A stretch of DNA of 64,000 nucleotides from positions 1 through 64,000 of the forward strand of contig JAOZFG010000003.1 of NCBI GenBank assembly GCA_027491435.1. Direction: 5' to 3'. Numbering within the stretch: the first letter of the stretch is position 1; each line of letters begins with the position of its first letter. The notes under the pieces are model-generated. The model made no database searches, had not been told where the DNA came from, and was given only the letters and a program-made list of their open reading frames with translations. A program made the position numbers and the translations under genes. This stretch comes from Thermoproteota archaeon (GTDB taxonomy: Archaea > Korarchaeota > Korarchaeia > Korarchaeales > Korarchaeaceae). This document shows positions 17,556 to 33,780 of the stretch, in pieces.

Positions 17556-17981
17556 TTTTCAGTGATGGAGTTTAAATTGACATCTCTCATATCTTTACAC
17601 TTTGAGGAGACTCCAATACTGCCTTTTGAACTGGCTCTTAAGCCTTAAGACAGCATTCCCTCGGCCCTATGTCATCTATCGTTCTATTTCGTCATGGTTC
17701 CGTCCAATAACCCTCCACCACTAACTAAATTACACGACCTATCTGAAGCTTCCTCGTCTTTGGGTAACCTTGAGCACGTTACTATCTCCTATAACTTCCT
17801 AGTTCCCCTGAACTCAACACTCTTTGCCTAGCCTAGGAACGCTTTACCCTTAAATCATCTTGCTTCTCCCTAAGGCCCCTCAACCATCCCGCGGCGAGGT
17901 TATAATGAGGGCCAATTTATTCATTTAATGAAAAGAAATTTAACATAAATAGATATATGGTAGGTTTTCCTATATCAGTAG

Positions 17982-18557
17982 ATGTGCCTGGATGAAGTAA
18001 GAGAATGGCCCGATAGAAAGGGGGTGCTTTACGCCGAGGTGAACGTGCCTGAGTTCGGAAAAGTGGTGTTGAAGGACGTGGTGATAATGTCTACCAGGTG
18101 GTGGTCGGACTTCATGTCAGGGATCTCCGTCATCTTCGGGGACAAGGCTTTGAGGCCCATTCTCTACTATTCAGCCTATCGGCTAATGAAGCAGCACAAC
18201 CAGAGGGGGCTCATCAGGAAGATTAGAGAGTACGCTGACATTGACTCCCCTGAGGCCAGGAGGAGGATGTTCCACGTCGCCTCTGAGGTTTTCGCTTGTC
18301 TGGGCTTCGGTAGGATAGAAGGGGTGGAGATTGATGAGAACCACATAAGGGCTGTGGTGAAGGAATCTTTTGAGGCTAGAGGGAGAAAGTCCTCATCTCC
18401 CGTGTGTCACTTCGTGGCTGGAGTCATAGCAGCCCTAATAGAAGACATTTACGGCCTTAGAATAGGCCCTGTAAGGGAGGAGAGGTGTTCAGCCATGGGA
18501 TCTGAATCCTGCCTCTTCGTCGCAGAGCTCATGGAGGAGAGACCCCATGAGGGTTGA
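17982..18557 (+). CDS. V4R-domain sensor/regulator (CorQ-like)
   Basis: LGFGRIE, SFEA, CHFVAGVI and EERCSAMGSESCLF form the V4R three-Cys pattern; upstream of the CODH operon. Confidence 0.85.
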   Translation: MCLDEVREWPDRKGVLYAEVNVPEFGKVVLKDVVIMSTRWWSDFMSGISVIFGDKALRPILYYSAYRLMKQHNQRGLIRKIREYADIDSPEARRRMFHVASEVFACLGFGRIEGVEIDENHIRAVVKESFEARGRKSSSPVCHFVAGVIAALIEDIYGLRIGPVREERCSAMGSESCLFVAELMEERPHEG

Positions 18558-19662
18558 GTCAGCCACTTTAGTCGTGAGGTCTGTAGGGAGGTGCTACCTT
18601 TCCTGTCCCTTTTGTCCCTGGAAGCTAAACAACTCGAGCTTTTTGGATAGATCCTCCCTGGAGGTAACGGTAGATGCGCTGATAGGCTCCATGTTTAAGC
18701 CCGACACCTACTTCATTTGTCCCGACCCCCTAGCCCATCCCGGCCTTGGAGAGTTAATCCAGACTGTTAGGGAGAGGAGGCTCCACGTGACCGTGTTCGT
18801 CCCCGCTTCCACAAGGGTTAGGGAAGTTAACTGGTCAAACCTTCTGAAGGCCGACCAGATCTTCCTATTTTCCTATAATGGCGATGAGCTTTTCGAAGCA
18901 GGTCCCCTGATAAGGTACCTGCTCATGAAGGGGGTCAGCGTTAAGTTAATGGCATTCGTTGTTCCCGGCATGAAACTCGACGAATTCGAGTCAATCATGG
19001 CTTATGCCCAGAGGAGAGGGCTGGAGCTCTGGGCCTCCCTGCCCATACTCTGCCCGATCTCAGAGTGCCCCATAAATCTAGTTAAATTGATGAAATCCTG
19101 GGGGTTCCACGTCACCGAGCCTATAGGGGAGTTCATGAGCGTTTACATGGTCAGAATGGCCTTCAAGGGGGATTACCCAGTTAGGGTCGTAGAGGGTCCC
19201 ATGTGTAGGAAGGACTGTAGGCTCCTCTTCTTAGATTCCAACGGGCTAGTCGGCAAGTGCCCAGCCAGCACTTTTCTAGGCATCTCTTCACCGCTTGAAT
19301 TCGCTGCTGTAGTCAGGAAGGGATGCACCAGGGTAGGGGAGAAGGTCAAGTACTCTTTCGTGACTTCGGTGAAGCTTGTCACCAGTGAAGGGGCCGAAAT
19401 CGATGAAAGGGATCTAGACCTACTCGCCTTATTGGAAGAAGTGGGTAGTTTAAGTAGCGCAGCGAAGATGCTGGGGGTTTCAACCCCTTCCGTGCTCAGG
19501 AGGGTAAGGAAGGTGGAGGAACTCCTAGGAATGAGGTTGTTGGTAAGTAGGAGGGGTGGAGTTGATAGAGGAGGTGTATTCCTAACACCTGAGGCTAGGG
19601 AACTCATAACCAAGTACAAGTCGGTGAAGTCCACCAGCAGCGTCCTCTCCAAGTTCACCTAA
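18547..19662 (+). CDS. Radical-SAM-like Fe-S domain fused to a C-terminal ModE/LysR-type winged HTH (CorR-like regulator)
   Basis: CYLSCPFC (CX3CX2C), additional Cys, then GSLSSAAKMLGVS...RRGGVDRGGVFLTPEA. Confidence 0.75.
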   Translation: MRVESATLVVRSVGRCYLSCPFCPWKLNNSSFLDRSSLEVTVDALIGSMFKPDTYFICPDPLAHPGLGELIQTVRERRLHVTVFVPASTRVREVNWSNLLKADQIFLFSYNGDELFEAGPLIRYLLMKGVSVKLMAFVVPGMKLDEFESIMAYAQRRGLELWASLPILCPISECPINLVKLMKSWGFHVTEPIGEFMSVYMVRMAFKGDYPVRVVEGPMCRKDCRLLFLDSNGLVGKCPASTFLGISSPLEFAAVVRKGCTRVGEKVKYSFVTSVKLVTSEGAEIDERDLDLLALLEEVGSLSSAAKMLGVSTPSVLRRVRKVEELLGMRLLVSRRGGVDRGGVFLTPEARELITKYKSVKSTSSVLSKFT

Positions 19663-19685
19663 CGTTTTAACCTAGTGTTAAAACG
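19663..19685. promoter_or_regulatory. Perfect inverted repeat upstream of cooF; candidate operator
   Basis: CGTTTTAAC-ctagt-GTTAAAACG, about 20 bp upstream of a TTATAATA-like box. Confidence 0.55.
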
Positions 19686-19761
19686 GGTCGTGATGCGTCT
19701 TTTATTGTTATAATATCGGAACAATTATTAAAATGTTCGACTAAGGTGTTCAGGGGGTAAG

Positions 19762-20343
19762 TTGGAAGCGGTGACGATTCCGGAGTACTTGATTTACGTC
19801 GACCCATCCCGATGCGTCGGATGTAGGAGTTGCGAATTAGCCTGTGCTGTAGAGCACTCGTCATCCAAGACCCTTTACGGTGCAATAGCTGAGCTCCCCC
19901 CTCCCAGGCCTAGGACCAAGGTGATTCCAGCTGACGGAATATACGTGCCCATGAGGTGCATGCACTGCGATCCCGCTCCCTGCGTCGAGGCTTGTCCTAC
20001 AGGTTCCATGCACAAAACTGAGGAGGGGTTCGTGATATCCAACCCGAGGAAGTGTATAGGTTGTAGAACCTGTTTGCTAGCCTGTCCCTTCGGACATCCC
20101 AGCTACAGCAGTGAGAACAAGGTGATCAAGTGCGACCACTGTGTTGACAGGATTAGGGCGGGCCTTCCTCCTGCCTGCGTTGAAGCTTGTCCAACCGGGG
20201 CTTTAAGGTATGGTAGGGCCGAAGAACTGTTGGACGAGGAGAAGAGGAGGCGCGCTTTGGAGCTCATTCTGGGACTAGGCGAGGGAGGGGTCGTGTACAG
20301 AAAGGCCAGGGAAGGTGCTCTGCACGCCCTTCTAGGGAGGTGA
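19762..20343 (+). CDS. cooF: CooF-type 4x[4Fe-4S] electron-transfer protein
   Basis: CVGCRSCELAC, CMHCDPAPCVEACP, CIGCRTCLLACP, CDHC..PACVEACP; directly upstream of cooS. Confidence 0.88.
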   Translation: MEAVTIPEYLIYVDPSRCVGCRSCELACAVEHSSSKTLYGAIAELPPPRPRTKVIPADGIYVPMRCMHCDPAPCVEACPTGSMHKTEEGFVISNPRKCIGCRTCLLACPFGHPSYSSENKVIKCDHCVDRIRAGLPPACVEACPTGALRYGRAEELLDEEKRRRALELILGLGEGGVVYRKAREGALHALLGR

Positions 20344-20347
20344 TGGT

Positions 20348-22273
20348 TTGGAGGAGAGAATTTATGAGAGGTTAATGAAGGCCTCCAGGAGGGAGTTCTA
20401 CGAGGGAGTTTCCTCCGACCCCACCGTCCCTCAGCTACTTGAGAAGGCCGAAAGGGATAAGATAGAGACTGTTTGGCACAGGTACCTAGCACAACAACCC
20501 CAGTGCGGTTTCGGCCTTCTGGGGGTGTGCTGCAGGAACTGCAACATGGGCCCCTGCAGGATAGACCCCTTCGGCTACGGCCCACAGAAGGGGGTTTGTG
20601 GGGCCACCGCCGATACTATAGTGGCGAGGAACCTGATGAGGATGCTGGCTGCTGGGGCTGCCGCCCATAGCGATCACGCTAGGGACATAGCTGAGGTGTT
20701 CATGGGCATACCGGAGGGTTGGGCCAAGGATTACGGGATAAATGACAGGGAGAAGTTGGTGGCCGTGGCCGAAAGGCTGGGCATCGAGACCGACGGCAAG
20801 GATGAAAAGGAGATAGCTAGAGAGATAGCTGAAATAGCTTTAATGGAGTTTGGTAAGCCTGGAGAAGATCCCCTTAAGTTCCTAGAAGCCTATGCTCCTG
20901 AGAAAAGGAAGGAGGTTTGGAAGAAGCTCGGGATAACTCCCAGGGCCATAGATAGGGAAGTGACGGAAATGATGCACAGGACTCACATGGGGGTGGACGC
21001 TGACCCACTTAGCTTGATAGCTCATGGGCTTAGAACGGCCCTAGCTGACGGGTGGAGCGGCTCCCTAATGGCAACCGAGTTGAGCGACATAATGTTCGGT
21101 ACCCCGAAGCCGATCAAGGTCTGGGCCAACCTGGGAGTGCTTAGAGAGGATGCGGTCAACATAATGGTTCATGGGCACAACCCCGTATTGTCCATGAAGA
21201 TAGTAGAGGCTGCCAAGGATCCGGAGCTCAACGAGTTAGCCAAAAAGCTGGGGGCCACTGGAGGAATAAACGTTGTCGGAATGTGTTGCACGGGAAATGA
21301 GGTCTTAGTGAGACTAGGTATTCCGGTAGCGGGCAACCTTTTGCAGCAAGAGTTGGCCATAATAACAGGGGCCCTTGAGGCTGTAGTGGTGGACTACCAG
21401 TGCATAATGCCTGCCCTGGTTGACGTTGCCTCCTGCTACCACACCAAGGTCATAACCACAGAGCCAAAGACCCATATCCCCGGGGCCTTACACATAGAGT
21501 TCGACAAGGCCAACGCCCTGGAGACCGCCAAGGAGATAGTGAGAGTCGCCGTGGAAAACTTCCCCAACAGGAGAAAGGACAGGGTTTTCATCCCTAAGGA
21601 GAAGATGGAAGCAGTAGTGGGCTTCAGCGTTGAGGCCATACTTAAAGCCTTAGGAGGCACCTTAAAGCCGCTGGCTGAGGCTTTGAAGGTCGGAAAGATT
21701 AAGGGGATAGCTGGGGTGGTCGGTTGCACCAACCCGAAGACAAGACACGATTACAGCCACGTCACAATAACTAAGGAGCTCATAAAGAACGACGTGCTGG
21801 TGGTGGGCACCGGTTGCTGGGCTATCACCATGAGTAAGGCCGGGTTGTTCAAGCCGGAAGCCGCTGAGTTGGCCGGTCCTGGGCTAAAGGAGGTGTGTAA
21901 GTCTCTGGGTATACCTCCAGCGCTTCACATGGGGAGCTGCGTCGACTGTTCGAGGATGTTAGTGGCTATAGCTGCCCTAGCTGACTACTTCGGGGTGGAC
22001 ATGTCCGATCTGCCCGTGGTGGGATCGGCTCCAGAGTGGATGAGCGAGAAGGCCGTCTCTATAGGGGCTTATTTCGTAGCCTCAGGGGTTCCCGTTCACC
22101 TAGGGACGGTGCCTCCAGTCTTGGGAAGCAAGAGGGTTGTGGAGATACTTACCGAGGAAGCTGAGAAGCTTGTAGGAGGTAAGTTCTTTGTTGAAACTGA
22201 CCCGAAGAAGGCAGCTGAGGCTATGCTGAACATAATAATTGAGAAGAGGAAGAGGTTGGGCTGGCCTGTCTAA
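20348..22273 (+). CDS. cooS: Anaerobic Ni,Fe carbon monoxide dehydrogenase catalytic subunit
   Basis: QPQCGFG...CCRNCNMGPC (D/B clusters), AAAHSDH, HGHNP, CCTGNE, DYQC, VGCTNPK, TGCW, GSCVDC, MSEKA. Confidence 0.96.
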   Translation: MEERIYERLMKASRREFYEGVSSDPTVPQLLEKAERDKIETVWHRYLAQQPQCGFGLLGVCCRNCNMGPCRIDPFGYGPQKGVCGATADTIVARNLMRMLAAGAAAHSDHARDIAEVFMGIPEGWAKDYGINDREKLVAVAERLGIETDGKDEKEIAREIAEIALMEFGKPGEDPLKFLEAYAPEKRKEVWKKLGITPRAIDREVTEMMHRTHMGVDADPLSLIAHGLRTALADGWSGSLMATELSDIMFGTPKPIKVWANLGVLREDAVNIMVHGHNPVLSMKIVEAAKDPELNELAKKLGATGGINVVGMCCTGNEVLVRLGIPVAGNLLQQELAIITGALEAVVVDYQCIMPALVDVASCYHTKVITTEPKTHIPGALHIEFDKANALETAKEIVRVAVENFPNRRKDRVFIPKEKMEAVVGFSVEAILKALGGTLKPLAEALKVGKIKGIAGVVGCTNPKTRHDYSHVTITKELIKNDVLVVGTGCWAITMSKAGLFKPEAAELAGPGLKEVCKSLGIPPALHMGSCVDCSRMLVAIAALADYFGVDMSDLPVVGSAPEWMSEKAVSIGAYFVASGVPVHLGTVPPVLGSKRVVEILTEEAEKLVGGKFFVETDPKKAAEAMLNIIIEKRKRLGWPV

Positions 22274-22274
22274 A

Positions 22275-23057
22275 ATGCCCCTGAGAGTCCTTGTAGCTGG
22301 AAAGGGCGGGGTTGGTAAAACCACGATCTCAGCCCTCCTCTCATTTTTTCTCTCATCTCGAGGAAAGAGAGTCCTGGCGGTGGACACTGATTCAGTGCCT
22401 AACTTGGCTCTCGCCCTAGGACTACCCCAGGAGGTCGCCTCATCAATAACCCCCCTAGTCAGGGATGAAGGGCTCGTCGAGGAAAGGACCGGTGCTAGGC
22501 CCGGGCAGAGCTGGGGGGTCTTCTTCAGGCTTAACCCTAAGGTTGACGACCTGATCTCCAAGTACGGGATAAGGGTTAGGGATGGCCTAAACCTCCTGGT
22601 GGTGGGAAGCATCGACTCGGCGAAGCAAGGTTGCTTATGTCCCTCTATAGCGCTTGTTAAGGCGCTGTTAAGGCACATAATGCTTGAAGAGGGGGATGTC
22701 GTGGTCGTGGACGCCGAGGCAGGGGCTGAGGTCTTCGGAAGGGGACTAGCTGAGAACTTCGACCAGATGTTATGCGTCTCAGAGCCCACAGTCAAGTCCT
22801 TGGAGGTATCCAGGAAGCTCATCGAGATGGGTAAGCAGTTGGGCATAAGGGGGATCTCTCTAGTGGTCAACAAGTTCCGTGGGGGGGCTGAACTGGAGGA
22901 AAGGATAAAGAACACGTTTGACGTCGACGTCTACTTCATCCCCTATGATGAGAGCTTCCTTCAGGCTGAGATGGAAGGTAGAGGGGCAGACACCTATCCT
23001 AAAGACTCTCCAGGAGTTAAATCGGCTCATAAGATATTTCTAGAGCTCTTCGGGTGA
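22275..23057 (+). CDS. cooC: CODH nickel-insertion ATPase
   Basis: GKGGVGKT, DTD..PNL, GCLCP and DAEAG; ATG at 22275 just after the cooS stop. Confidence 0.92.
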   Translation: MPLRVLVAGKGGVGKTTISALLSFFLSSRGKRVLAVDTDSVPNLALALGLPQEVASSITPLVRDEGLVEERTGARPGQSWGVFFRLNPKVDDLISKYGIRVRDGLNLLVVGSIDSAKQGCLCPSIALVKALLRHIMLEEGDVVVVDAEAGAEVFGRGLAENFDQMLCVSEPTVKSLEVSRKLIEMGKQLGIRGISLVVNKFRGGAELEERIKNTFDVDVYFIPYDESFLQAEMEGRGADTYPKDSPGVKSAHKIFLELFG

Positions 23058-23061
23058 TCTC

Positions 23062-25011
23062 ATGGACGTTAAAGTCGGAATTTACGTCTGTCACTGCGGT
23101 AAGAATATAGCTGGAAAGGTAGACGTGGTTAAAGTGGCCAATGAGCTCAGGAAGGATCCTAGAGTTTCAGTGAGCAGGCATTACTTCTTCATGTGCAGCA
23201 GCTCCGGTCAAGAGATCATAAAGCGGGACATTGAAGCTGGAAGGGTGAATAGGATCGTGGTGGCGGCGTGTAGCCCTAAGTTACACGAGCCCCTGTTCAG
23301 GAGAGTTGTCAGCGAAGCTGGACTCAACCCAGGGTATTATGAACAGGCCAACATAAGGGAGCTCGTATCCTGGTCAACTGAGGACCCTGAGAAGGCAACT
23401 GAGAAGGCCATAAGGTACACGAGAGCTGCCTTAGAGAAGGTCGTGTCAGCTCAGCCCATAGAGGTTAAGGAAGTTCCCGTCAACAGGGAGGCGCTAGTGA
23501 TAGGGGGAGGAGTTGCAGGCCTGACTGCAGCCCTAGACTTGGCTGAGAAGGGGATAAGGGTCCACCTGGTTGAGAAGAAGCCCACAATAGGGGGAATGAT
23601 GGCCCTCTTCGACAGGGTGTTTCCCACGGGCGATTGCTCCCTCTGCATACTGACGCCTATGATGGCCGAGGCCGAGGCTCATCCGAACATAACAATTTAC
23701 ACGAACTCCGAGGTCCTCGATGTGTCTGGTTCCGTGGGGAACTTCAGGGTGAGGGTGAGGAAGGACGCTAGATACGTGGACCTCGAGAAGTGTGTGACCT
23801 GTGACACCTGCTCCAAGGAGTGCCCAGTTGAGGTTCCCAACGAGTGGGACGCTTACCTGGGGACCAGAAAAGCCATCTACATACCCTATCCCCAGGCCGT
23901 GCCTCGAGCTTACGTGGTAGACCCCGACAGCTGTCTCTACTTCAGAGACGGTAGCTGCAGGAGATGCGAAGAGGTTTGCCCTACTAAGGCGATAAACTTG
24001 GATCAGGAGCCCGAGATCCTAGAGCTGGAAGTGGGCGCCATAATAGTGGCCACTGGGATGAAGGAGTATAACGCTTCAAACTTAAAGAACTACGGCTACG
24101 GCAAGTATCAGGACGTGATAACTCAATTCGGGTTTGAGAGGCTAGTTAACGTTACAGGGCCAACTCAGGGCGAGATAAGGAGGCCCAGCGACGGGAGGGT
24201 TCCTAAAAGGTTCGTCTTCATACAGTGCGCCGGAAGCAGGGACGTGAACCACAACCCCTACTGCTCCAACGTCTGTTGCATGGTGACGCTCAAGCAGGCC
24301 GAGATAATCAGAAGCGAGATACCTGACAGCCAGGTTTACGTGTGCTACATAGACATGAGGACCCCTAAGAGGGGGTTTGAGGAGATGTACGCGAGGGTCA
24401 GGCAGGAGGGCGTCACCTTCATCAGGGGTAAGCCTGGGGAGGTCAGGAGGGAGGGAGATCATCTAATCGTCGAAGTCTTCGACGAGACCCTAGGGAAGAA
24501 GCTGATGCTTGAGGCAGACATGGTGATACTAGCGGCCGGCTTATCGCCCTCTGATGGCACCATAGGAATTAAAGAGGTGCTTAACGTTGGCGCTGACTCT
24601 TATGGATTCCTTCAGGAGCTTCACCCCAAGCTAAAGCCAGTTCAGACTTCTAGACCAAGTATTTTCATATGTGGTGGAGCACAGGGGCCTAAAGACATTC
24701 CTGACTCCGTGACTCAAGCTAAAGCGGCTGCTAGCGAGGCCTCTGCCCTCCTGATAAGGGGTAAGGTGGAGATTCCAGGGGAGAGGGCTTACGTAAAGCC
24801 GGAGCTCTGCACTGGCTGTGGGGCCTGCGTGGAGGAGTGCCCGTTCCAGGCCATAGAGCTAGTTGAGGGTAAGGCCAGGGTCATTGAGGCCGCCTGCGCT
24901 GGATGTGGGATATGTCAGGGGGTATGTCCCAAGGGAGCCATCGAGAGGAGGCTCTACACTGGAGAGGAAGTTTTGAACCAAGTTGACGGCCTGTTGGAGG
25001 TGATAGGTTGA
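23062..25011 (+). CDS. hdrA: Heterodisulfide reductase subunit A (FAD, multiple [4Fe-4S])
   Basis: VCHCG, AACSP, GGGVAG, FPTGDCSLC, inserted ferredoxin, QCAGSR, CSNVCC, GPKDIPDSV, C-terminal 2x[4Fe-4S]. Confidence 0.94.
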   Translation: MDVKVGIYVCHCGKNIAGKVDVVKVANELRKDPRVSVSRHYFFMCSSSGQEIIKRDIEAGRVNRIVVAACSPKLHEPLFRRVVSEAGLNPGYYEQANIRELVSWSTEDPEKATEKAIRYTRAALEKVVSAQPIEVKEVPVNREALVIGGGVAGLTAALDLAEKGIRVHLVEKKPTIGGMMALFDRVFPTGDCSLCILTPMMAEAEAHPNITIYTNSEVLDVSGSVGNFRVRVRKDARYVDLEKCVTCDTCSKECPVEVPNEWDAYLGTRKAIYIPYPQAVPRAYVVDPDSCLYFRDGSCRRCEEVCPTKAINLDQEPEILELEVGAIIVATGMKEYNASNLKNYGYGKYQDVITQFGFERLVNVTGPTQGEIRRPSDGRVPKRFVFIQCAGSRDVNHNPYCSNVCCMVTLKQAEIIRSEIPDSQVYVCYIDMRTPKRGFEEMYARVRQEGVTFIRGKPGEVRREGDHLIVEVFDETLGKKLMLEADMVILAAGLSPSDGTIGIKEVLNVGADSYGFLQELHPKLKPVQTSRPSIFICGGAQGPKDIPDSVTQAKAAASEASALLIRGKVEIPGERAYVKPELCTGCGACVEECPFQAIELVEGKARVIEAACAGCGICQGVCPKGAIERRLYTGEEVLNQVDGLLEVIG

Positions 25012-25877
25012 GAGTAGTGGGTTTCTGTTGCAATGAGTGCGCCTACGCCGCAGCTGACCTGGCCGGTAGCACCCACAGGGTCCACCCGCCTGAGGTGTTA
25101 GTGGTTAGGATACCTTGCTCAGGGATCGTTGACCCATCTTGGCTCGTGTACGCCTTAGCTAAGGGGGCTGACGCCGTGTTCGTAGCGGGTTGCAGGAAAG
25201 GAGAGTGTCACTACGTTGATGGAAACTTCAAGGCCGAGTCGAGGGTCGCCTTCGTCAAGGAGCTCCTCAAGTCAGTTGGAGTAGAGCCGGAGAGAGTGGA
25301 GATGTTCTTCATGGCCGCCTCAGAACCTCACAAGTTCGTGGAGGCCGCCAAGGAGATGGTAAGGAGGGTCGAGGAGCTTGGTCCCTTGGAGAGGAAGGGG
25401 GCCCCGAAGAGGGAAGGTAAGAAGGGCGTGATAGCCAGCTCCCTCCTGGCAATAGCTAAAACCGTCATTGACGCTCCGTTGCCGGAGATACCTGGGTTTA
25501 GAGTTCCTAACTTCTCAAGTGAGTGCATAGGGTGTGGTGCCTGCGTTGAGACCTGTCCTGAGAGGGCGTTGAAGGTGAGGGACTACAACGGGAAGAGGGT
25601 TATAGAGCTTAACGCCAGGAGGTGCACCTCGTGCGGCAAGTGCGTCGAGGTCTGCGACGAGGTAGAGAAGGCGCTAACCTTGGGAGGGATGACACTAAAA
25701 CAGCTTTTGGAGGAGTGGTCAGTCGTCTCTGCTCACGATCTAGTTGAGTGCGAGGTCTGCGGGAGGCCCTTCGCTACACAGAGGGAGCTCGACAGGTCAG
25801 GTTCCCCGAAGGTCTGCCCCTCATGTAAGGAGAGGTTATCGGCTAGGGCCATGGTCGTAGGGAGGGTAGGGCCGTGA
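25008..25877 (+). CDS. mvhD: MvhD/FlpD [2Fe-2S] subunit fused to a ferredoxin domain
   Basis: FCCNECAYAAADLAG, RIPCSG, GCRKGECHY..GN; C-terminal CIGCGAC/CTSCGKC plus CEVC...CPSC. Confidence 0.85.
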   Translation: MRVVGFCCNECAYAAADLAGSTHRVHPPEVLVVRIPCSGIVDPSWLVYALAKGADAVFVAGCRKGECHYVDGNFKAESRVAFVKELLKSVGVEPERVEMFFMAASEPHKFVEAAKEMVRRVEELGPLERKGAPKREGKKGVIASSLLAIAKTVIDAPLPEIPGFRVPNFSSECIGCGACVETCPERALKVRDYNGKRVIELNARRCTSCGKCVEVCDEVEKALTLGGMTLKQLLEEWSVVSAHDLVECEVCGRPFATQRELDRSGSPKVCPSCKERLSARAMVVGRVGP

Positions 25878-26347
25878 TCGAGGAGATCAAGTCCATCTCC
25901 GGTCAGGACGTCAACTTGTGCTACCAGTGCGGCGAGTGCTCATCTTCCTGCCAGGTAGCAGGGGTTGATGGCTTTTACCCAAGCGTCCTAATTCACAGGA
26001 TAAAACTTGAGGACCCCGGAGTGCTGGATGAGAGAAAGTTTGAGGTCTGCCTGCACTGCTTCCTCTGTACCGTGAGGTGTCCACAAGGCATAAGCTTCCC
26101 AGACGTAGCGACAGCCCTTTCGAACATTTGGGTCAAGAGATACGGTCCTGACAGGGTTGAGAGGGCTTTCCTAAAGGAGTTGAGGGAGAGGGGTTTCATA
26201 AACCCGGTAAGGGTTGCCCTCTCGGCTTTAGGGCTTCACTCCTTCAAATCTCTGAGTTCCAAGGCTTTGAAGCTAATGAGGGCTTCTTCAAGGTCGGGGA
26301 AGGTTAGGGAGGACCTCCTTAAGGAGGTGAGGGAGATTGTCCCCTGA
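25874..26347 (+). CDS. hdrC: Heterodisulfide reductase subunit C
   Basis: CYQCGECSSSC and CLHCFLCTVRCPQ. Confidence 0.85.
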   Translation: MIEEIKSISGQDVNLCYQCGECSSSCQVAGVDGFYPSVLIHRIKLEDPGVLDERKFEVCLHCFLCTVRCPQGISFPDVATALSNIWVKRYGPDRVERAFLKELRERGFINPVRVALSALGLHSFKSLSSKALKLMRASSRSGKVREDLLKEVREIVP

Positions 26348-27068
26348 GGTGTCCTACTACCCGGGGTGCACTGGGACGACCACCGAGAGGGCCTATGTCA
26401 AGACGGCCCTCATGGTCTTGAAAGACCTTGGCTTTGAGGTGAGGCTGTTAGAAGACCTCCCCTGCTGTGGAACTCTGGAAGCCGAGCTGGTCGATGTCTC
26501 AATAACTAAGAGGTTAGCCTCTCTGATAAACAGGGAGGCTGGGAACGTCATAACCGGATGTAGCGGGTGTTACAGCAATATAAAGAGGGGAGGGGGCGAG
26601 GCTACCCACCTCCTGCACTTCTTGGTGAAGGAGGTAGGCCTTAGCGAGGTCAAGAATAGGGTAAAACGTCCATTGAGGTTGAAGGTGGCTCCATATTATG
26701 GGTGTCAGGCCCTAAGGCCTAGATTCCTAGCCATAGACGATCCTGAGGATCCTAAGATCTTTGAGGAGCTTTTGATGGCTATAGGAGCTGAGCCTGTGGA
26801 GTTTGATATGAGGATCAAGTGTTGCGGTGGACCCATTTCGCTGAGGAGACCTTTAGAGGCTAGGAAGATGGCCGAAGAGGTTGTTAAGTCGGCTAATATG
26901 GCAGGAGCTGAAGTTGTAGCTACGATGTGCAACCTGTGTCACTTCATGCTTGACTACTACACTAACGAAATGCCGGTGCTCCACTTCACCCAGCTGGTGG
27001 CCCTGGCCTTCGGGCATCCATTCGAAGAGATGGATTTTGAGGAGCACTACAATAGGGTTTTGAGGTGA
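26337..27068 (+). CDS. hdrB: Heterodisulfide reductase subunit B
   Basis: Two CCG domains: YYPGC..CCG..CSGC and YYGC..CCG..CNLC. Confidence 0.88.
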   Translation: MSPEVSYYPGCTGTTTERAYVKTALMVLKDLGFEVRLLEDLPCCGTLEAELVDVSITKRLASLINREAGNVITGCSGCYSNIKRGGGEATHLLHFLVKEVGLSEVKNRVKRPLRLKVAPYYGCQALRPRFLAIDDPEDPKIFEELLMAIGAEPVEFDMRIKCCGGPISLRRPLEARKMAEEVVKSANMAGAEVVATMCNLCHFMLDYYTNEMPVLHFTQLVALAFGHPFEEMDFEEHYNRVLR

Positions 27069-27072
27069 TATC

Positions 27073-27261
27073 ATGTGTGAGGGTGTAGTTTTCCTGGTGA
27101 GGGATGGTGAGAGGGTCAAGGTCATGGAAAACGTTGTCTCCCTCCACCTGAAGGGTGGAAGGGCCATACTGGTTGACGACTTCGGGAGGGACAAAGTGAT
27201 AGAGGGGGTTAAAGAGGTAAGGGTAAACATGGTGGCCCACGAGATCACCCTCTACCCCTAA
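27073..27261 (+). CDS. cooT: CooT-family nickel-binding protein
   Basis: MCE start, VMENV, DDFG and the C-terminal HEI are typical of CooT. Confidence 0.85.
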   Translation: MCEGVVFLVRDGERVKVMENVVSLHLKGGRAILVDDFGRDKVIEGVKEVRVNMVAHEITLYP

Positions 27262-27301
27262 ACCTTTTTTAGGGGCCTAACTGTTCCGGGCCGGTGGTAG
27301 G

Positions 27302-27871
27302 GTGGCCTCAATACCTCCTACTGTCTCCTACGTCATGGCGGTCTTAGACATGCTAGCTACCTCCATAGCTGCATACATAGCCTGGCTCTCCTACAAGGGT
27401 TACAAGTACGGGTTCCCCAGGATGAGGACGACTTTGGTCTCCTTCTCAGCGCTCAGCCTATCCTTTACAGCTTCAGCTTACGTGTCCCTGCTCCTATCCT
27501 CGCCGCCAAGGGGACCGCCAACTTCGTGGATGCCTCACCTTCTGAGGAATCCCCTGTTCATCGCCGTGCAGTTCGGTTACGCCGTGAGCTACCTAACGTT
27601 ACTGCTGGGATTTAGGAGGGGTGAGGTGGACTATCTTTTCCTCGTGCCCACGTTACCATTCATAGTTGCAATAGCAGTCTACCTGGCGAGCAGGGAGAGG
27701 GCCTCTCCAAAGGCTCAGGTAACTTACTTAGGTTTGGCCCTGTCTCACCTGATCACAACTCTGGCCTTCCTGACGTATAAGCCATGGCTCCTGATAGTAG
27801 GAGAGCTGGTGAGGTCTCTTTCCCTAATCCCCATTGCAATCTTGCTAGGGGAGGCCTGGCATGAGGCGTAA
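27302..27871 (+). CDS. Polytopic membrane protein
   Basis: About six hydrophobic helices; overlaps the downstream wHTH gene. Confidence 0.7.
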   Translation: MASIPPTVSYVMAVLDMLATSIAAYIAWLSYKGYKYGFPRMRTTLVSFSALSLSFTASAYVSLLLSSPPRGPPTSWMPHLLRNPLFIAVQFGYAVSYLTLLLGFRRGEVDYLFLVPTLPFIVAIAVYLASRERASPKAQVTYLGLALSHLITTLAFLTYKPWLLIVGELVRSLSLIPIAILLGEAWHEA

Positions 27872-28124
27872 GTACAGGTCTCAGGCCGCCATAGTATGCG
27901 ACATACTGGAGGCCATATCATCCAAGCCGGGCATAGCTCCCTCTAGGTTAAGCCAGGAGGTAAACGTGCCCTACACGAGGCTAGTTGAGTATTTGGAGCT
28001 CCTCAAGGAGAAAGGGTTAATATTTGATGATAAAGGACTCAATCTAACGGAGGAGGGCTTTAAAATTTTGGTTGAGATGAGGAGGATTAGGAGGATATTC
28101 TCCTCTCTTGGGCTTAAGCTTTAA
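27861..28124 (+). CDS. Winged-helix transcriptional regulator (HTH_45/ArnR1-like)
   Basis: RS...IVCDILEAI, NVPYTRLVEYL..L...GLI, LTEEG. Confidence 0.82.
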   Translation: MRRKYRSQAAIVCDILEAISSKPGIAPSRLSQEVNVPYTRLVEYLELLKEKGLIFDDKGLNLTEEGFKILVEMRRIRRIFSSLGLKL

Positions 28125-29141
28125 TCAGCATATTCTCGGAACCACTGCCCCTAGGGGCCTCTCCATCACTCTAAGCCCGCCCACCTTAGTTTCCAAGATC
28201 ACCATTCCTCGATACTTGGAGCTCTCCTTGACCTCGCCTATTATCGAGGCCCTATCGCACCCTCTCTCCTTAAGGAAGTTTAACACGTCCTCAGAGACCT
28301 CCGGGCTAACTCCCAGGACGGCCTTGCCCTCTGAGGCCAGTTGCAATGGGTCCACTCCCAGAAGCTCTGAGAGGGCCTTAACTTCTTCGGCTATTGGTAT
28401 CGATTCCTCCCTAACGGTTATTAGGAGGCCAGTCTTGGAGGCCCACTCGTTCAGGACCTGCGCTAAACCTCCTCTAGTTGGATCTTGGGCAGCCCTTATC
28501 TGGTCCCCGAACTCCTCTAGGAGGGGGAGCATAACCTGGGTCAGAGGCTTGACGTCGCTCTCAACGCCTTCAATCCCCTGTTGAGCTGCTAGTATAGCGG
28601 CTCCGTGATCCCCAACCGTTCCTGTAACCAGCAACTTATCTCCAGGTTTTAAGGAGGAGTCCAGTATCGGCTTCTCAGCCCAACCCACGCCTACGGTTGT
28701 TATCACCACGCCCCTCAAATCTCCGAAGGGCATGACCTTGAAGTCCCCGCCTACAAGCTTAACGCCGTTCTCCCTAAAGACCTGAATCATGCTGGAGGTT
28801 ATCTTCTTGAGCTCCTCTAACTCAAAGCCCTCCTGAACTATGATTGAGTCCATAGCTGCTACAGGCTTGGCTCCCATCATTAGAACGTCGTTAATCGTGC
28901 CGGACGCTGCTAATACCCCGAGGTTGCCTCCGGGAAAGAAGGGCGGATTTACCGTGTAGGAGTCGACGCTCATCACCAGGTGATTCTCGCCTGCAGGCAG
29001 TGTGGCTCCATCATCTAGTTCATCAGTCCCGACCCCTCCCTCAACCCTCTTCATGTCCTCATCCAGTAGGGAGAGGATGAGCTTTTGTACCATGTCTTGG
29101 GTGGCCTTTCCTCCAGCCCCGTGAGATAAGTTCACTCTCAT
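28125..29141 (-). CDS. hypE: Hydrogenase maturation protein HypE
   Basis: LSHGAGG, DSYTVNPPFFPGG, GTINDV, DPTRGG, C-terminal PRIC. Confidence 0.96.
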   Translation of the reverse strand: MRVNLSHGAGGKATQDMVQKLILSLLDEDMKRVEGGVGTDELDDGATLPAGENHLVMSVDSYTVNPPFFPGGNLGVLAASGTINDVLMMGAKPVAAMDSIIVQEGFELEELKKITSSMIQVFRENGVKLVGGDFKVMPFGDLRGVVITTVGVGWAEKPILDSSLKPGDKLLVTGTVGDHGAAILAAQQGIEGVESDVKPLTQVMLPLLEEFGDQIRAAQDPTRGGLAQVLNEWASKTGLLITVREESIPIAEEVKALSELLGVDPLQLASEGKAVLGVSPEVSEDVLNFLKERGCDRASIIGEVKESSKYRGMVILETKVGGLRVMERPLGAVVPRIC

Positions 29142-29363
29142 CTAATCACCTAAAGATTCCAGCAGCTCTTGCCAGGTCTTTATCATATCCTTAGCCTCCT
29201 CCTCGTTAACTTTTGAGATTATCATGCCCACGTGAACGATAACGTAGTCGCCTGGGCTAACCTCCTCCAGCGTGGCGTCTACCTCCCTCCTTATCCCGTT
29301 GAAGTCGACAAGGGCCCTCCTGCCCTTAACCTCGATAACCCTACCGGGAATCCCCAGGCACAT
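29142..29363 (-). CDS. hypC: Hydrogenase assembly chaperone HypC
   Basis: MCLGIPG and GDYVIVHVG. Confidence 0.96.
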   Translation of the reverse strand: MCLGIPGRVIEVKGRRALVDFNGIRREVDATLEEVSPGDYVIVHVGMIISKVNEEEAKDMIKTWQELLESLGD

Positions 29364-30111
29364 TGATTATCACCTCCACCAGGTCGTTAAAGGCTCTCTC
29401 AAGCTCTGGAGAAGACTTATGCGGTGGATCGCCGGACCTGATAGCCTCCTCTACCGAGGGCTCCATGGGTATTCTGGCTATCACCCTAACGCCCAAGTTC
29501 GAGTAGTCGACCTCGCCGAAGGGCTTCACCTTCTCGCCCCCACAGCTCAGATAGCTCATGTTCTCAACTACTCCCAGCAGGGAAAATCTCTCGTCCCTTA
29601 TCATGTTAATGGCCCTCCTCACGACCTCGATGGAGGCCTTAGATGGAGTGGTGACCACCAACACCTTAGACTTCCTCCTGTTAAACGACCTGAGGGCCCA
29701 GAGGAACTCATCACCTGTGCCAGGGGGCATGTCAACCACCAGGTTATTGGCCGACCACTTGGTCATGGCCATCATCGTGTAAATCAGGGGCCACTTGTCC
29801 TCACCCTTGAACGGGAGGGGAGTCCCTTCCGTGAGTAAGGCTAGGGACATGTACTCCACCTCACCTCTCCTCGCCGGTATTAACCCCTCCTTGCTGGCCC
29901 TTACCCTGCCAACACCTAGAAAAGATGTTGTTGATGGTCCGTGAAGGTCTAGGTCAAGAAGGCCCACCGACAGGCCCCTGTCTGCCATGGTCAGAGCTAA
30001 ACAGGAGGAGACGAAGCTCTTGCCCACGCCTCCCTTTCCCGAAGCTACTATCACCACCCTTTCAAATTCAGAAGCCTTCTTAAGGGCCCATCTTCCCAAG
30101 AAGTCGTTCAT
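29341..30111 (-). CDS. Mrp/NBP35-family ATPase, probably ATPase-type HypB
   Basis: SGKGGVGKS, DLDLHGPS, DMPPGTGD, VENMS without the Fe-S CxxC; sits between hypA and hypC. Thermococcales use a Mrp/MinD-type HypB. Confidence 0.8.
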   Translation of the reverse strand: MNDFLGRWALKKASEFERVVIVASGKGGVGKSFVSSCLALTMADRGLSVGLLDLDLHGPSTTSFLGVGRVRASKEGLIPARRGEVEYMSLALLTEGTPLPFKGEDKWPLIYTMMAMTKWSANNLVVDMPPGTGDEFLWALRSFNRRKSKVLVVTTPSKASIEVVRRAINMIRDERFSLLGVVENMSYLSCGGEKVKPFGEVDYSNLGVRVIARIPMEPSVEEAIRSGDPPHKSSPELERAFNDLVEVIINVPGDSR

Positions 30112-30533
30112 CTGGATCCCTCCAGCCTAGAAACCCTGATTCCCTTGCCTTTAATCGCCTGGAAGTCCCTGCTCTGACATTTAGGGCACTTAATCAGGGC
30201 TGGGGCCAGCTCGGGTATGAAGTGAACAGAGCTTTCCTCAACGCCCTCCTCTAACACCTTCCTGTCACCCTCTATCAGCTCGTGAGAGAACTCCCACTCG
30301 TTGCCGCACCTGGAACACCTGAACACCGTAGGCTCCTCAACGACCGAGAATTCTACGCTCTCAAAGGACCCTCCCTTGGATAGCTCTGTTAGGGCCTCCT
30401 TCAGCAGGGATCCGTCCAGCTCCATCACGCTACCATAACTGACTTCTACGAAGTGAACGTTGGACAGGCCCTCTGACTTGGCCAAGTCTTCCAGGGCATC
30501 TAGGATCATAAACGCAATTGACCACTCGTGCAT
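30108..30533 (-). CDS. hypA: Hydrogenase nickel incorporation protein HypA
   Basis: MHEWSIA, CSRC and CPKC; HFIPEL insertion. Confidence 0.93.
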   Translation of the reverse strand: MHEWSIAFMILDALEDLAKSEGLSNVHFVEVSYGSVMELDGSLLKEALTELSKGGSFESVEFSVVEEPTVFRCSRCGNEWEFSHELIEGDRKVLEEGVEESSVHFIPELAPALIKCPKCQSRDFQAIKGKGIRVSRLEGSR

Positions 30534-31087
30534 CAGGCGCCCCCACACCTGAACATGCCTTCAAGAAAGGCCTTCTCGTTCACCTTCATGGGGAACCCCC
30601 TCTTCCCTAACTCCCTAGTTAGCAGGCGAAGGGCCTTTAAACTGGCTGTCACAACTTCATCTGAAAGATTTTCCCCGAGATCTACCTCTTTAACGGCGAT
30701 CCCCACCACGTAAGCCTCTGGCAGGTATCCCAAGGAGGCTGCAGCCGCCAGCAGAATGTCTGGTGTTATCCCGTGGCTACCGTACTCGGCGACCATCCTT
30801 ATGGCCTCCCTAGACACTTGGGGGTTCACCTTGTACAGGATCACTTGCCCTGGCTCTCCCTGGACGGCATCCACTATGTAGGCCAGCTCAACCCCCTCAA
30901 AATAGTCAAGGAGGTTCAGGCCTCCAAGCCCGCCATCAACCACCAGAAGCCACTCATGATTAATCAGGGAGCCCAGGACCTCGGCGAAGCAGGAGCCCAC
31001 CCCGTCGTCCCCGAGGAGCCTGTTGCCCACACCCATTATCAGGACCTTAGGGCCTCCCTTAACAGGTTCTCCATGACTTGGACACAT
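30533..31087 (-). CDS. Hydrogenase maturation endopeptidase
   Basis: GVGNRLLGDDGVG, VDGG, IVDAV, SHG. Confidence 0.92.
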   Translation of the reverse strand: MCPSHGEPVKGGPKVLIMGVGNRLLGDDGVGSCFAEVLGSLINHEWLLVVDGGLGGLNLLDYFEGVELAYIVDAVQGEPGQVILYKVNPQVSREAIRMVAEYGSHGITPDILLAAAASLGYLPEAYVVGIAVKEVDLGENLSDEVVTASLKALRLLTRELGKRGFPMKVNEKAFLEGMFRCGGA

Positions 31088-31684: not shown

Positions 31685-33004
31685 TTATGGGAGGTAGTCC
31701 TGGAGGTAGGAGACTATGTGAACCGCCTTAAACTCCTTGCCGAACTTCTTGGCCCCTTTGTTTATCGTGTGGATGCAGGTGGAGCACCCGGTGACTACGA
31801 GCTCCGCCCCTGACTCTTCTATCTCGTCCACTTTGTTCTTGACGGCGACTAGGTGATCTTTCTCAAGCTCCTCACAGAACTTGGCACTGGAGATTAATTC
31901 GCCCAGCAGCTCCCTCAGCATTCTCCTCCCCTCCTCGGCCATTAAAGATATTCCAGTCCCCCCTCCGCAGCAGTGGGAGTACATCCCTATACCCTTTGGT
32001 AGGTCCCTGTACTGCTTTGAGGTGGCTTTAATCAGGTGCCTGGGCTCCTCTATGAGGCCGCCTCCCCTAGCCATCTTGCAGGGGTCGTGCCAAGTCACCT
32101 TAACCCCGTCTTGTTTCAGATTGAGCTTGCCCTCGGAGTACATTTCGTGGAGGAGTTCTACCACATGAATCACCTTGAAGGGAGCCCTTTCACCGAGCAC
32201 GAAGGGGAGCTCGAACCTTAAGTCCATGTAGGGAGTGCCTCCATGGGATAGCAGCGCCGCCTTCCCTTTGTGGGACTTCACGTAATCCACTATCCTCTTG
32301 AAGACCACCTTTCTGGCCTTCTTGTCGCCCATTATGGTTCCTAACGCCGGTTCTATGGCCAGGGGTTTGGAGGGCATGCTCCAGTTCAGGTTAAGCTTGT
32401 CGAGAAGTTTGACCGTGTCAACTATGACCTCTGGAGTGAGTATGGCCTCTATAAGCCAGGGAAGGTATATTAGGTCGGCTGGCCTGTCAAGGGGAAGCTC
32501 CCCGCCAATTGCCTCCTGAGCCCTCTTAAGCGCCTCGTTCCAAGCGCTAATAAGCCCGTTGGGGAAGTTCCCTGAAACTTCCACGTCCTTTAGTACGGTG
32601 AGGCAGGAGGGGGTCATCCCAACCCTATCTATTATCTGCCTGAGCATCATGATGAGCTCTCCGCTATAAATGCCTAGGGGACACGTCTGGTAGCAGTACC
32701 TGCAGTTGGTACACCTGTAAGCCATCTCCCTTATCCTTTCCAAGTCCTCTTTGTCCCTGGGGAGCTTAGCCCCCACCAGCTCACCCAGAATTTTGCCCGC
32801 GAAGGTCATCTCCTTCCTGTAGATGAACCTCATCTCCTCAGCCTTGTTGACGGGCTCGTACTTGACGTCTGCGTAGTAGAATGGGCAGTGAGGTCCGCAA
32901 AGGCCGCAGGAAACGCAGCCCTCCAGGTAATGTAACCTAACAGGGTCTACCTCCCTGAGAACTGATCTTATGGCCTCTTGAACGCTCATAACCCCCTCCT
33001 CCAT
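31685..33004 (-). CDS. Isp2/HdrD/DsrK-like Fe-S oxidoreductase
   Basis: CVSCGLCGPHCP and CTNCRYCYQTCP; C-terminal CCG domain (HDPC..CCGGG..CSTC). Confidence 0.85.
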   Translation of the reverse strand: MEEGVMSVQEAIRSVLREVDPVRLHYLEGCVSCGLCGPHCPFYYADVKYEPVNKAEEMRFIYRKEMTFAGKILGELVGAKLPRDKEDLERIREMAYRCTNCRYCYQTCPLGIYSGELIMMLRQIIDRVGMTPSCLTVLKDVEVSGNFPNGLISAWNEALKRAQEAIGGELPLDRPADLIYLPWLIEAILTPEVIVDTVKLLDKLNLNWSMPSKPLAIEPALGTIMGDKKARKVVFKRIVDYVKSHKGKAALLSHGGTPYMDLRFELPFVLGERAPFKVIHVVELLHEMYSEGKLNLKQDGVKVTWHDPCKMARGGGLIEEPRHLIKATSKQYRDLPKGIGMYSHCCGGGTGISLMAEEGRRMLRELLGELISSAKFCEELEKDHLVAVKNKVDEIEESGAELVVTGCSTCIHTINKGAKKFGKEFKAVHIVSYLQDYLP

Positions 33005-33771
33005 ATGTCATAAACCTCGTGAAGCTTCCCGAACCAGAAGTTGAAGACGAAGTGGAAGAACTTCGTGAAAGGAAGCAAGATGACTAGGAGCTCCGCGCTA
33101 AGTATGTGAAGTCCCAGGACGTTCTTGTAGGTGACCACGTCGCCAAAGGGCAGGTGATGTGTAGCCATGTAGCCTGTAACTAGGATGAAAAGTAAGAGGA
33201 TCAGCGCTGAAAAGTCGCCCCAGTTCACCCTCTGCAGCCTGTGCTTAACCTTAGCCACCACCCTATCGGCCAGCTTGAAGGCAGTAGCCACTATGGCCAG
33301 CACCGCTAATACGTCCCCGTTAAGCACGACGGTAAGCGGACCCCATATTGTGTTTACGAACTTGAAGGACATTCCACTCACTGGCTGTAGAGGAGCTGTG
33401 ACCGTTAGGGATGAGCTAGTCGCACTGGTAGGTATTGCTAGGAAAGAGAGAGCTTGATATGGCGGGAAATAGTAGGACCACCAGGCCACGTGATGACTCA
33501 GGAGGAAGAGCAGAGGTATAACCCCTAACGTGTGGAGCACTAGGAGGCCCACTAGGAAGTCCACCCTAGACTTCTTCGCCGCCGCTATTATAGCGTGGAT
33601 AAAAGAGTCGATGAGGAGGAACGCCCTCCTAGCCAGGGGCCTTTTCCTCCACTCTGGTCTAGCGGTCTTCCTGTACGTGAACGCGTACCTGGAGAGGCGG
33701 TATATCAACCCAAAAGTGAAAAGCGCAATTGAGGGTAAGAACATGTCGTAAACGGCGAACTCGTATATCAT
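32986..33771 (-). CDS. Isp1/NarI/DsrM-like di-heme b membrane anchor
   Basis: About five TM helices with His residues; LHILSAELL..LPFTKFFH motif. Confidence 0.82.
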   Translation of the reverse strand: MIYEFAVYDMFLPSIALFTFGLIYRLSRYAFTYRKTARPEWRKRPLARRAFLLIDSFIHAIIAAAKKSRVDFLVGLLVLHTLGVIPLLFLLSHHVAWWSYYFPPYQALSFLAIPTSATSSSLTVTAPLQPVSGMSFKFVNTIWGPLTVVLNGDVLAVLAIVATAFKLADRVVAKVKHRLQRVNWGDFSALILLLFILVTGYMATHHLPFGDVVTYKNVLGLHILSAELLVILLPFTKFFHFVFNFWFGKLHEVYDIWRRGL

Positions 33772-33780
33772 ACTCCCCCC

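Follow-up and report, generated by a model that had tools for sequence, protein, structure and literature searches.

A nickel CO dehydrogenase operon enclosing HdrA, MvhD, HdrC and HdrB genes in a korarchaeon suggests a CO-driven disulfide reductase

HdrABC-MvhD complexes, built around heterodisulfide reductase (Hdr), are the model for flavin-based electron bifurcation, and the modules known to feed them use H2, formate, F420H2 or NAD(P)H. The window analyzed here, a stretch of 64,000 nucleotides from a Korarchaeaceae genome (GenBank contig JAOZFG010000003.1, positions 1 to 64,000; contig C36 among the 43 contigs of a 1.64-Mb genome with 99.46% completeness), carries hdrA, mvhD, hdrC and hdrB inside an operon for a nickel CO dehydrogenase (Ni-CODH; coo genes). 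The observations below suggest that non-methanogenic archaea of one family oxidize CO to reduce a disulfide, and we consider it fairly probable that the proteins of the operon form one CO-driven disulfide-reducing complex.

Ten closely packed genes on the forward strand (17982-27261), from a V4R gene through cooT, were identified from the list of open reading frames and from Pfam and NCBIfam scans. These genes and the sequence elements around them are as follows (aa, amino acids; HTH, helix-turn-helix).

17982-18557, + strand: V4R-domain protein, 191 aa (PF02830 V4R, 44.9 bits); 11 bp overlap with the next gene
18547-19662, + strand: regulator, 371 aa, with a C-terminal LysR/ModE-type HTH (PF00126 HTH_1, 41.9 bits, residues 288-351)
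19663-19685, + strand: perfect inverted repeat (8+8) with the core GTTTTAAC-N5-GTTAAAAC, candidate operator
near 19700-19717, + strand: A/T-rich box downstream of the inverted repeat
19754-19758, + strand: GGGGG, putative ribosome-binding stretch ahead of cooF
19762-20343, + strand: cooF, 4x[4Fe-4S] polyferredoxin, 193 aa (PF13247, Fer4_11, 81 bits; four Cys clusters)
20348-22273, + strand: cooS, monofunctional Ni,Fe CO dehydrogenase, 641 aa (TIGR01702, 779 bits, cut-off 478)
22239-23057, + strand: cooC, Ni-insertion ATPase, 272 aa in the longest frame (P-loop CbiA/ParA families)
23062-25011, + strand: hdrA, full-length bifurcating-type flavoprotein, 649 aa (NF040770 HdrA2, 815 bits, below the cut-off of 1100)
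25008-25877, + strand: mvhD/ferredoxin fusion, 289 aa (FlpD, 158 bits, residues 3-125, plus Fer4)
25874-26347, + strand: hdrC-like 2x[4Fe-4S] subunit, 157 aa (Fer4_17, Fer4_8; TIGR03290, 46.7 bits, cut-off 160)
26337-27068, + strand: hdrB-like catalytic subunit, 243 aa (PF02754, 76 bits, two CCG stretches; TIGR03288, 112 bits, cut-off 345)
27073-27261, + strand: cooT, Ni chaperone of CODH, 62 aa (PF10133, 43.1 bits, cut-off 27)
27255-27275, + strand: hairpin CCCCTAAA / TTTAGGGG with six T, overlapping the cooT stop codon, a possible transcript end judged from its sequence

From cooF to cooT the intergenic spacing is +4, -35, +4, -4, -4, -11 and +4 bp; the 35-bp overlap of cooS and cooC is that of the longest cooC frame, and cooC orthologues align from residue 8. 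An earlier reading of the window, made without database searches (the sequence-only reading), had described the order cooF-cooS-cooC-hdrA-mvhD/ferredoxin-hdrC-hdrB-cooT, the genes overlapping or at most 4 bp apart, and the open reading frames and family scans confirm it. That reading was also right in placing the hdr genes between cooC and cooT: in G030, a genome of the same family whose coo locus has no hdr genes, cooT directly follows cooC. Thus, the hdr genes sit inside a coo unit. As it had further noted, the operon contains no genes for acetyl-CoA synthase (ACS), MvhAG, Flx or an energy-converting hydrogenase.

The cofactor motifs of the encoded proteins are intact. CooS passes the curated TIGR01702 cut-off and aligns with PDB entry 6t7j, its closest solved relative, at 1015 bits over residues 19-641; the cluster motifs bearing Cys and His are letter-identical in this alignment, the assignment of individual residues to the B, C and D clusters being presumed. 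The entry is named Tc CODH2 in a passage of PMC13703895, and the likeness of the operon to Thermococcus CODH2 lies in this CooS sequence match. CooF keeps all 16 cluster Cys in 15 of 15 sequences; among solved complexes its relatives are HycB-type subunits (7z0s_B, 3e-16). CooC has no match to the CooC-specific model; it is 38-57% identical to the product of the ATPase gene adjoining cooS in other genomes and 61-75% identical to that of the equivalently placed gene in relatives.

HdrA residues 3-645 align with residues 4-650 of HdrA in 5odc (5odc_A, 658 bits); the GGGVAG flavin adenine dinucleotide (FAD) motif is present, and the three Fe-S domains (N-terminal, inserted, C-terminal) keep their Cys motifs. 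Because HdrA has this full 649-aa form, with the short form (6tjr) matching only residues 323-563, a sulfur-oxidation system of the sHdr type was rejected. HdrB aligns with HdrB of 8rvv and 5odc, and its C11, C43, C44, C75 and C78 and its C123, C162, C163, C198 and C201 are invariant in 12 of 12 orthologues; the sequence-only reading had called the CooS cluster ligands and both HdrB CCG domains intact, and so they are. HdrC has eight Cys invariant in 13 of 13 sequences. Altogether, 42 cluster Cys (16 in CooF, 18 in the MvhD fusion, 8 in HdrC) and the 10 HdrB CCG Cys are invariant across three genera at 45-86% identity.

HdrA was surveyed in 61 genomes (60 others and the source genome), 36 of which have a match. 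Of the 60 others, 13 have an orthologous HdrA (68-86% identity), and all 13 belong to one family (f1; genera g1, g2 and g5). These 13 genomes provide 14 loci, in 12 of which cooC directly precedes hdrA, the other two ending at or inside hdrA; eight loci are complete from cooF through hdrB, with the V4R and HTH genes preceding. The one genome without the junction (G006) has cooF-cooS-cooC at one contig end and hdrA at another contig end. A metagenome scan with the fusion protein yielded 17 loci: eight of the coo-hdr type (64-66% identity; five complete from the V4R gene to hdrB, three cut by contig ends), four of a distant type and five with plain MvhD. Relatives and metagenome contigs repeat the gene order at 57-84% protein identity. 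This gene-context survey, which the sequence-only reading had proposed as a check, thus finds the cooC-hdrA junction on one contig in 12 of 13 genomes, and the linkage also on eight metagenome contigs. The association of cooS with the hdr genes is far beyond chance; the linkage is firmly conserved and, as far as surveyed, confined to one family. Two further matches each contain one in-frame TGA, for which selenocysteine or a break is possible: a CooS match (61%) in the same genus (G019:C12:6171-8012) and an HdrA match (50%) in a distant archaeon (G056:C1:543920-545881).

The MvhD fusion is the proposed adaptor between the two sets of proteins. Its N-terminal 130 residues are MvhD (125 bits to 5odc_D), with Cys 7, 8, 11, 37, 62 and 67 invariant in an alignment of 13 orthologues, and its residues from about 156 to 263 match HycF, hydrogenase-4 subunit H and NuoI-type 2x[4Fe-4S] subunits (8.6e-14 against HycF residues 37-132). 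Also invariant in the 13 orthologues are the two CxxCxxCxxxC motifs of this added domain (Cys 173, 176, 179 and 183; Cys 206, 209, 212 and 216) and a CxxC...CxxC element (C248/C251...C270/C273). In a sample of 43 species genomes of the phylum, the protein is matched over residues 3-287 in 12 genomes and the source genome, all with the coo-hdr operon, and the 36 other MvhD matches stop by residue 145; the extension is therefore present in 13 of 13 coo-linked copies versus 0 of 36 others. The extra ferredoxin domain seen on MvhD in the sequence-only reading is thus of a specific HycF/NuoI-like type, confined in the phylum to coo-linked copies.

Modeling of CooF with the MvhD/ferredoxin protein, also proposed in the sequence-only reading, supports docking of the added domain on CooF. 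The complex of CooF (alignment of 15 sequences) and the fusion (alignment of 13) is predicted with a score of 0.66 (runs 0.64, 0.66 and 0.69), the best control scoring 0.00, and passes a mark that was reached by 58 of 80 solved complexes and by 2 of 110 mismatched pairs. At least 71% of the contacts recur between runs, and the partner has a predicted local distance difference test (pLDDT) value of at least 85. CooF residues 99-112, around the C98-C108 cluster motif, are predicted to contact fusion residues 176-182, 215-219 and 256-284, and every fusion residue in the confident contacts belongs to the added domain. In the solved formate hydrogenlyase 7z0s, HycB and HycF are direct neighbors. 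CooF matches HycB and the added domain matches HycF, so the predicted interface would correspond to the HycB-HycF contact, and the model argues for a contact of that kind. In formate hydrogenlyase HycF passes electrons to the hydrogenase small subunit, whereas here the HycF-like domain would hand them on to MvhD and HdrA.

The added domain has counterparts beside cooS in other organisms. Among the fetched loci, its best non-orthologous match is to a NuoI-like subunit in a CODH-linked energy-converting hydrogenase (L015:18383-18910; 37% over 108 aa, E 9e-13), and a MAFFT alignment finds the layout of two [4Fe-4S] motifs followed by CxxCG...CxxC in both proteins. The same layout occurs in a 159-aa protein adjoining cooS (L155:8872-9351) and in the C-terminal halves of 2Fe-2S/NuoG-like proteins beside cooS in five further loci (L038, L046, L049, L077 and L085). 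In distant bacteria and archaea a ferredoxin/CxxC module thus stands beside cooS alone, as a NuoI-like subunit, or behind a 2Fe-2S NuoG-like domain. From these alignments we infer that the recurring module is the entry by which acceptor machines draw electrons from CooF, and that it is here fused to MvhD; it may be a general CooF-coupling module.

Relatives and known systems show exchange of the donor and acceptor parts. In G030, cooF, cooS (71% identical), cooC and cooT are followed by two Mrp/NuoL-type genes, NuoH and NuoK-type genes, which by their families form an energy-converting-hydrogenase context. The nearest CooS locus outside the family (L015, 68%) has a regulator gene and cooF-cooS-cooC, then NuoL, a group-4 [NiFe] large subunit, NuoH and the 175-aa NuoI-like ferredoxin; another (L018, 65%) has cooFSC followed by NuoF-like and 2Fe-2S/4Fe-4S proteins. 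A genome of another family (G038; L149, G038:C4 3161-7615) encodes an 81% identical CooS with CooF, divergent from genes for a 278-aa polyferredoxin and a 277-aa two-CCG protein, with no cooC nearby; this locus pairs a CODH with a CCG-type reductase in another, simpler manner. Conversely, G026, of the same family as the source genome, has the classical set hdrA-mvhD(146 aa)-mvhG-mvhA-hycI-hdrC-hdrB. Taken together, these arrangements indicate that the CooFS module meets varied acceptors and the Hdr core varied donors.

The four metagenome loci of the distant type (L169-L172) encode a CooF-like protein, HdrA and an MvhD-ferredoxin fusion (32-36%), with hdrC and hdrB after the fusion in L170-L172; in L169, Pfam assigns the genes upstream of the CooF-like gene to a Fer4_22 protein and a NAD_binding_1/DHODB-type protein. 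By their gene families these loci look like Flx-Hdr relatives with the same kind of fusion. An NAD(P)H-binding FlxA-type gene of the sort they contain is absent from the coo-hdr operon.

Among characterized complexes, MvhAGD-HdrABC of methanogens (5odc, 8rvu) is alike in the full-length HdrA motifs, the MvhD domain, the two CCG motifs of HdrB and the two clusters of HdrC. It differs in that cooF and cooS are here the donor genes in place of MvhA and MvhG, that MvhD has an extra 160-residue ferredoxin/CxxC domain, and that HdrB is about 50 residues shorter than methanogen HdrB. FdhAB-MvhD-HdrABC (7bkb) and FlxABCD-HdrABC are precedents for an exchangeable donor module, which here would be a Ni-CODH. 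CODH-linked energy-converting hydrogenases share the cooF-cooS-cooC(-cooT) module and the regulator type with this operon, but their membrane hydrogenase is replaced here by soluble HdrA-MvhD-HdrCB; judging from the domain match, only the ferredoxin-like input subunit appears to be kept, as the fusion.

No alternative partner for this Hdr was found in the rest of the genome. The only Prismane-family/CODH gene is cooS, hence no ACS-type CODH is encoded; a CdhA-type match is likewise absent from the genome, methanogen control genomes being positive. There is one full-length hdrA, four further matches being ferredoxin domains only, and one FlpD/MvhD gene. The sole PF00374 hydrogenase gene (33781-36782, - strand) comes with a small subunit carrying a twin-arginine (Tat) signal and a C-terminal anchor, and no MvhA-type (cytoplasmic group-3c) gene was found in the 99.46% complete genome. 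Since the sole PF00374 enzyme is Tat-exported, no Mvh-type partner for this Hdr was found in the genome; Hdr co-purifying with an Mvh or Fdh encoded elsewhere was among the outcomes that the sequence-only reading had named as refuting it. Its proposal that CooS-CooF replaces the usual donor module is supported by the conserved linkage, the lack of any other hdrA, mvhD, Mvh or Ni-CODH gene, the restriction of the added domain to coo-linked MvhD copies and the predicted docking.

The hydrogenase belongs to a cluster downstream of the operon that the sequence-only reading did not mention.

31685-36782, - strand: [NiFe] hydrogenase cluster, 4.4-9.5 kb downstream of the operon
28125-31087, - strand, and 37211-40568, + strand: hyp genes flanking the hydrogenase cluster

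After the hydrogenase genes come those for a five-helix, His-rich membrane protein of 261 aa and an HdrD/DsrK-like protein of 439 aa (Fer4_8 and CCG); by its domains the cluster resembles H2:disulfide chains such as Vht-HdrDE or DsrMK. The pairing of a membrane hydrogenase with such an HdrD/DsrK-like protein suggests that this organism does use a disulfide as electron acceptor. The hydrogenase/hyp cluster was rejected as a part of the coo-hdr unit because it does not adjoin the operon in the relatives' loci. Elsewhere, the genome has one group-4/NuoD-like (PF00346) gene, on another contig, and two molybdopterin enzymes, far from the operon.

In the proposed mechanism, CooS-CooF would occupy the place held by MvhAG, FdhAB or FlxABC in the known complexes. 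CO would be oxidized at the CooS C-cluster, and electrons would pass through the B and D clusters of CooS to the four [4Fe-4S] clusters of CooF, from there to the HycF/NuoI-like 2x[4Fe-4S] domain of the fusion, and onward by way of the [2Fe-2S] cluster of MvhD to the HdrA FAD. The flavin would send electrons through HdrC and the two non-cubane clusters of HdrB to a disulfide or persulfide other than Mcr-made CoM-S-S-CoB, and a second branch would probably run through the HdrA ferredoxin domains to soluble ferredoxin. The reduced ferredoxin could be reoxidized by the single group-4/Nuo-like membrane complex of the genome. The large drop from CO to disulfide may secure ferredoxin reduction at low CO; alternatively, HdrA may merely be a two-electron collector here.

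In its fullest form, the proposal is that the Ni-CODH is the physical donor module of an HdrABC-type bifurcating complex, which would have arisen when a HycF/NuoI-like input subunit of a CODH-linked hydrogenase became fused to MvhD. The electrons of CooF would thereby be redirected from protons to a disulfide (plus ferredoxin), giving non-methanogenic archaea, probably Korarchaeia, a CO-dependent disulfide respiration and accounting for their 'puzzling' Hdr. We hold the chances of this fuller version to be evenly balanced.

Several points weigh against a single CO-driven, bifurcating complex. The potential of CO (E0' about -520 mV) allows it to reduce ferredoxin directly; being about as reducing as ferredoxin, CO does not require bifurcation to yield reduced ferredoxin. 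The Hdr subunits miss the NCBIfam cut-offs of the CoB-CoM enzyme (HdrA 815 of 1100 bits, HdrB 112 of 345, HdrC 47 of 160). The sequence-only reading had suggested a genome search for mcr, DsrC and TusA: no mcrA (MCR_alpha) match was found in the 99.46% complete genome, and thus no source of CoM-S-S-CoB; DsrC was also not found in the genome; and the only thiol-related candidates found are two TusA genes and a ComA-TrmB fusion, elsewhere in the genome. Outside family f1, none of the 80 nearest CooS loci (52-68% identical, from species-representative genomes of many bacterial and archaeal phyla; records very close to the source genome may be left out of this survey) has hdrA adjacent to cooS, and a widespread linkage among CooS relatives was therefore rejected. 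A single one of the 80 (L044) has hdrCBA, about 6-7 kb from cooS, and two others have ferredoxin-domain matches of 52-64 aa only. G038 and G039 encode CooS proteins 81-82% identical to that of the source genome without this hdrA adjacent. Finally, CooF is HycB-like and the added domain HycF-like, and the docking result may reflect that likeness.

The ComA-TrmB fusion is a homologue of ComA (phosphosulfolactate synthase) joined to a TrmB-type HTH (G000:C16:26244-27215; L182:9245-10216, - strand). Its gene adjoins succinate dehydrogenase/fumarate reductase genes and lies near that of a sulphur-transport-family protein.

The alternative that survives best, though we think it unlikely, is that the operon encodes two separate, co-regulated enzymes: CooS-CooF would reduce soluble ferredoxin, and the Hdr complex would oxidize ferredoxin or another carrier, with the added ferredoxin domain as the entry point for soluble ferredoxin. 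The Methanosarcina HdrA2B2C2 enzyme reportedly reduces disulfide by oxidizing ferredoxin, and HdrA2 is the type of the best NCBIfam model for the HdrA described here. The direct reduction of ferredoxin by CO expected from textbook potentials, the hdrA-free surroundings of cooS in G038 and G039, and the many monofunctional CooS-CooF pairs without a fixed partner among the 80 nearest loci all fit two enzymes. This arrangement does not, however, sit well with the position of the hdr genes, which in every related locus are flanked by cooC and cooT and separated by 4-bp gaps or overlapping, nor with an added domain that is restricted to coo-linked MvhD and is predicted to dock on CooF itself.

A CO-driven complex wired in the same way may instead serve thiol homeostasis or detoxification, removing CO rather than conserving energy by respiration. 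We regard this as improbable. It would agree with the failure to find a respiratory disulfide source in the genome (neither mcrA nor DsrC) and with the presence of the operon in about half of the genus (HdrA in 10 of 20 genomes, CooS in 9 of 20), as for an accessory trait; a role in oxidative-stress defence has been proposed for CODH-IV of Carboxydothermus. For simple thiol reduction, however, an HdrA of the full bifurcating type, complete with its ferredoxin domains, is an elaborate means, and the membrane hydrogenase with its HdrD/DsrK-like partner fits a disulfide as a respiratory acceptor.

It is very unlikely that the Hdr is fed by another donor, the [NiFe] hydrogenase downstream or a molybdopterin formate dehydrogenase, and that its position in the coo operon is incidental. 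The hydrogenase at 33781-36782 and the two molybdopterin enzymes are the candidates. However, the small subunit of the hydrogenase carries a twin-arginine signal, the enzyme comes with membrane and HdrD-like partners of its own, and in the relatives' loci it does not lie near the operon; no MvhA-type gene was found in the genome, and the molybdopterin genes are far from the operon. Hardly credible is a reverse or vestigial system, either making CO from CO2 by confurcation or consisting of functionless relics of a methanogenic ancestor: the conserved HdrABC/MvhD is termed 'puzzling', and ancestral methanogenesis considered, in work on Korarchaeia (PMC10667645), but the cluster and CCG Cys are invariant at 45-86% identity in three genera, and no ACS-type CODH that could use the CO was found.

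If the proteins do form one CO-driven complex, CO joins the list of HdrABC-MvhD donors, and the purpose of the bifurcating flavin comes into question, since this donor already matches ferredoxin in reducing power. The Hdr genes of Korarchaeia have been called puzzling in the absence of Mcr (PMC10667645); the coo-hdr operon gives these genes a concrete, testable role, and the CO-driven reading predicts that these archaea have a thiol/disulfide couple not yet described. Varied acceptors seem to be coupled to CooF through one small, transferable ferredoxin/CxxC module, which may aid the reading of the many Ni-CODH loci whose function is not yet assigned. A survey of Ni-CODH gene contexts lists Hdr-like COGs for the Wood-Ljungdahl group only (PMC6344411). 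The literature searched yielded no description of an operon joining cooS and hdrA, or of a Ni-CODH as an Hdr donor, the supplements and the founding genome paper of the lineage lying outside the search. The sequence-only reading had made the novelty of the operon depend on its not having been characterized before, and as far as that search reaches the operon is new. New here are the coo-linked MvhD extension, its predicted docking on CooF and the donor and acceptor swaps in relatives.

The V4R and LysR-HTH genes directly upstream of the operon (17982-19662), which the sequence-only reading did not mention, are conserved with it. The V4R gene is kept at the same place in relatives at 50-60% identity and the regulator gene upstream of cooF at 41-46% (70% in a partial match, L137); a regulator at 25-26% identity also stands in the two nearest foreign cooFSC loci, L015 and L016. 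The regulator reaches 52.5 bits against the TIGR00637 ModE domain, below the cut-off, and its N-terminal 280 residues have no family match. For CorQR of Thermococcus onnurineus, two papers (PMC6557876, PMC4791640) describe a LysR-type DNA-binding protein and a V4R protein that flank a CODH-hydrogenase cluster and activate it in response to CO. The likeness to CorQR is one of domain make-up (V4R and LysR-HTH) and of position beside a CODH cluster, not of compared sequences, and the regulated unit would differ here in including the hdr genes. By this analogy the V4R protein is a candidate CO-sensing partner of the regulator, and the pair probably turns the whole unit on with CO.

The inverted repeat at 19663-19685 is a candidate operator of the CorR-like regulator. 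A TCGGAAC motif follows the repeat and the A/T-rich box (19700-19740), and orthologous loci have related CGTTTT...AAAACG repeats and a TCGGA motif upstream of cooF. A scan of 17700-27600 with bacterial-type models, which say little about an archaeal host, gave 7 promoter-like sites versus 4.7 +/- 2.4 in shuffled sequences and 11 terminator-like sites versus 8.9 +/- 3.8, no excess over the shuffles; the hairpin after cooT is not among the terminator-like sites.

Rfam and tRNA scans of the 64,000-nt window returned no matches. The gene immediately after the operon (orf189, 27302-27871) was rejected as an operon member because it has no counterpart in the relatives' loci. It encodes a 189-aa four-helix membrane protein without a family match and is followed by a gene for an 87-aa protein, the two together spanning 27302-28124.

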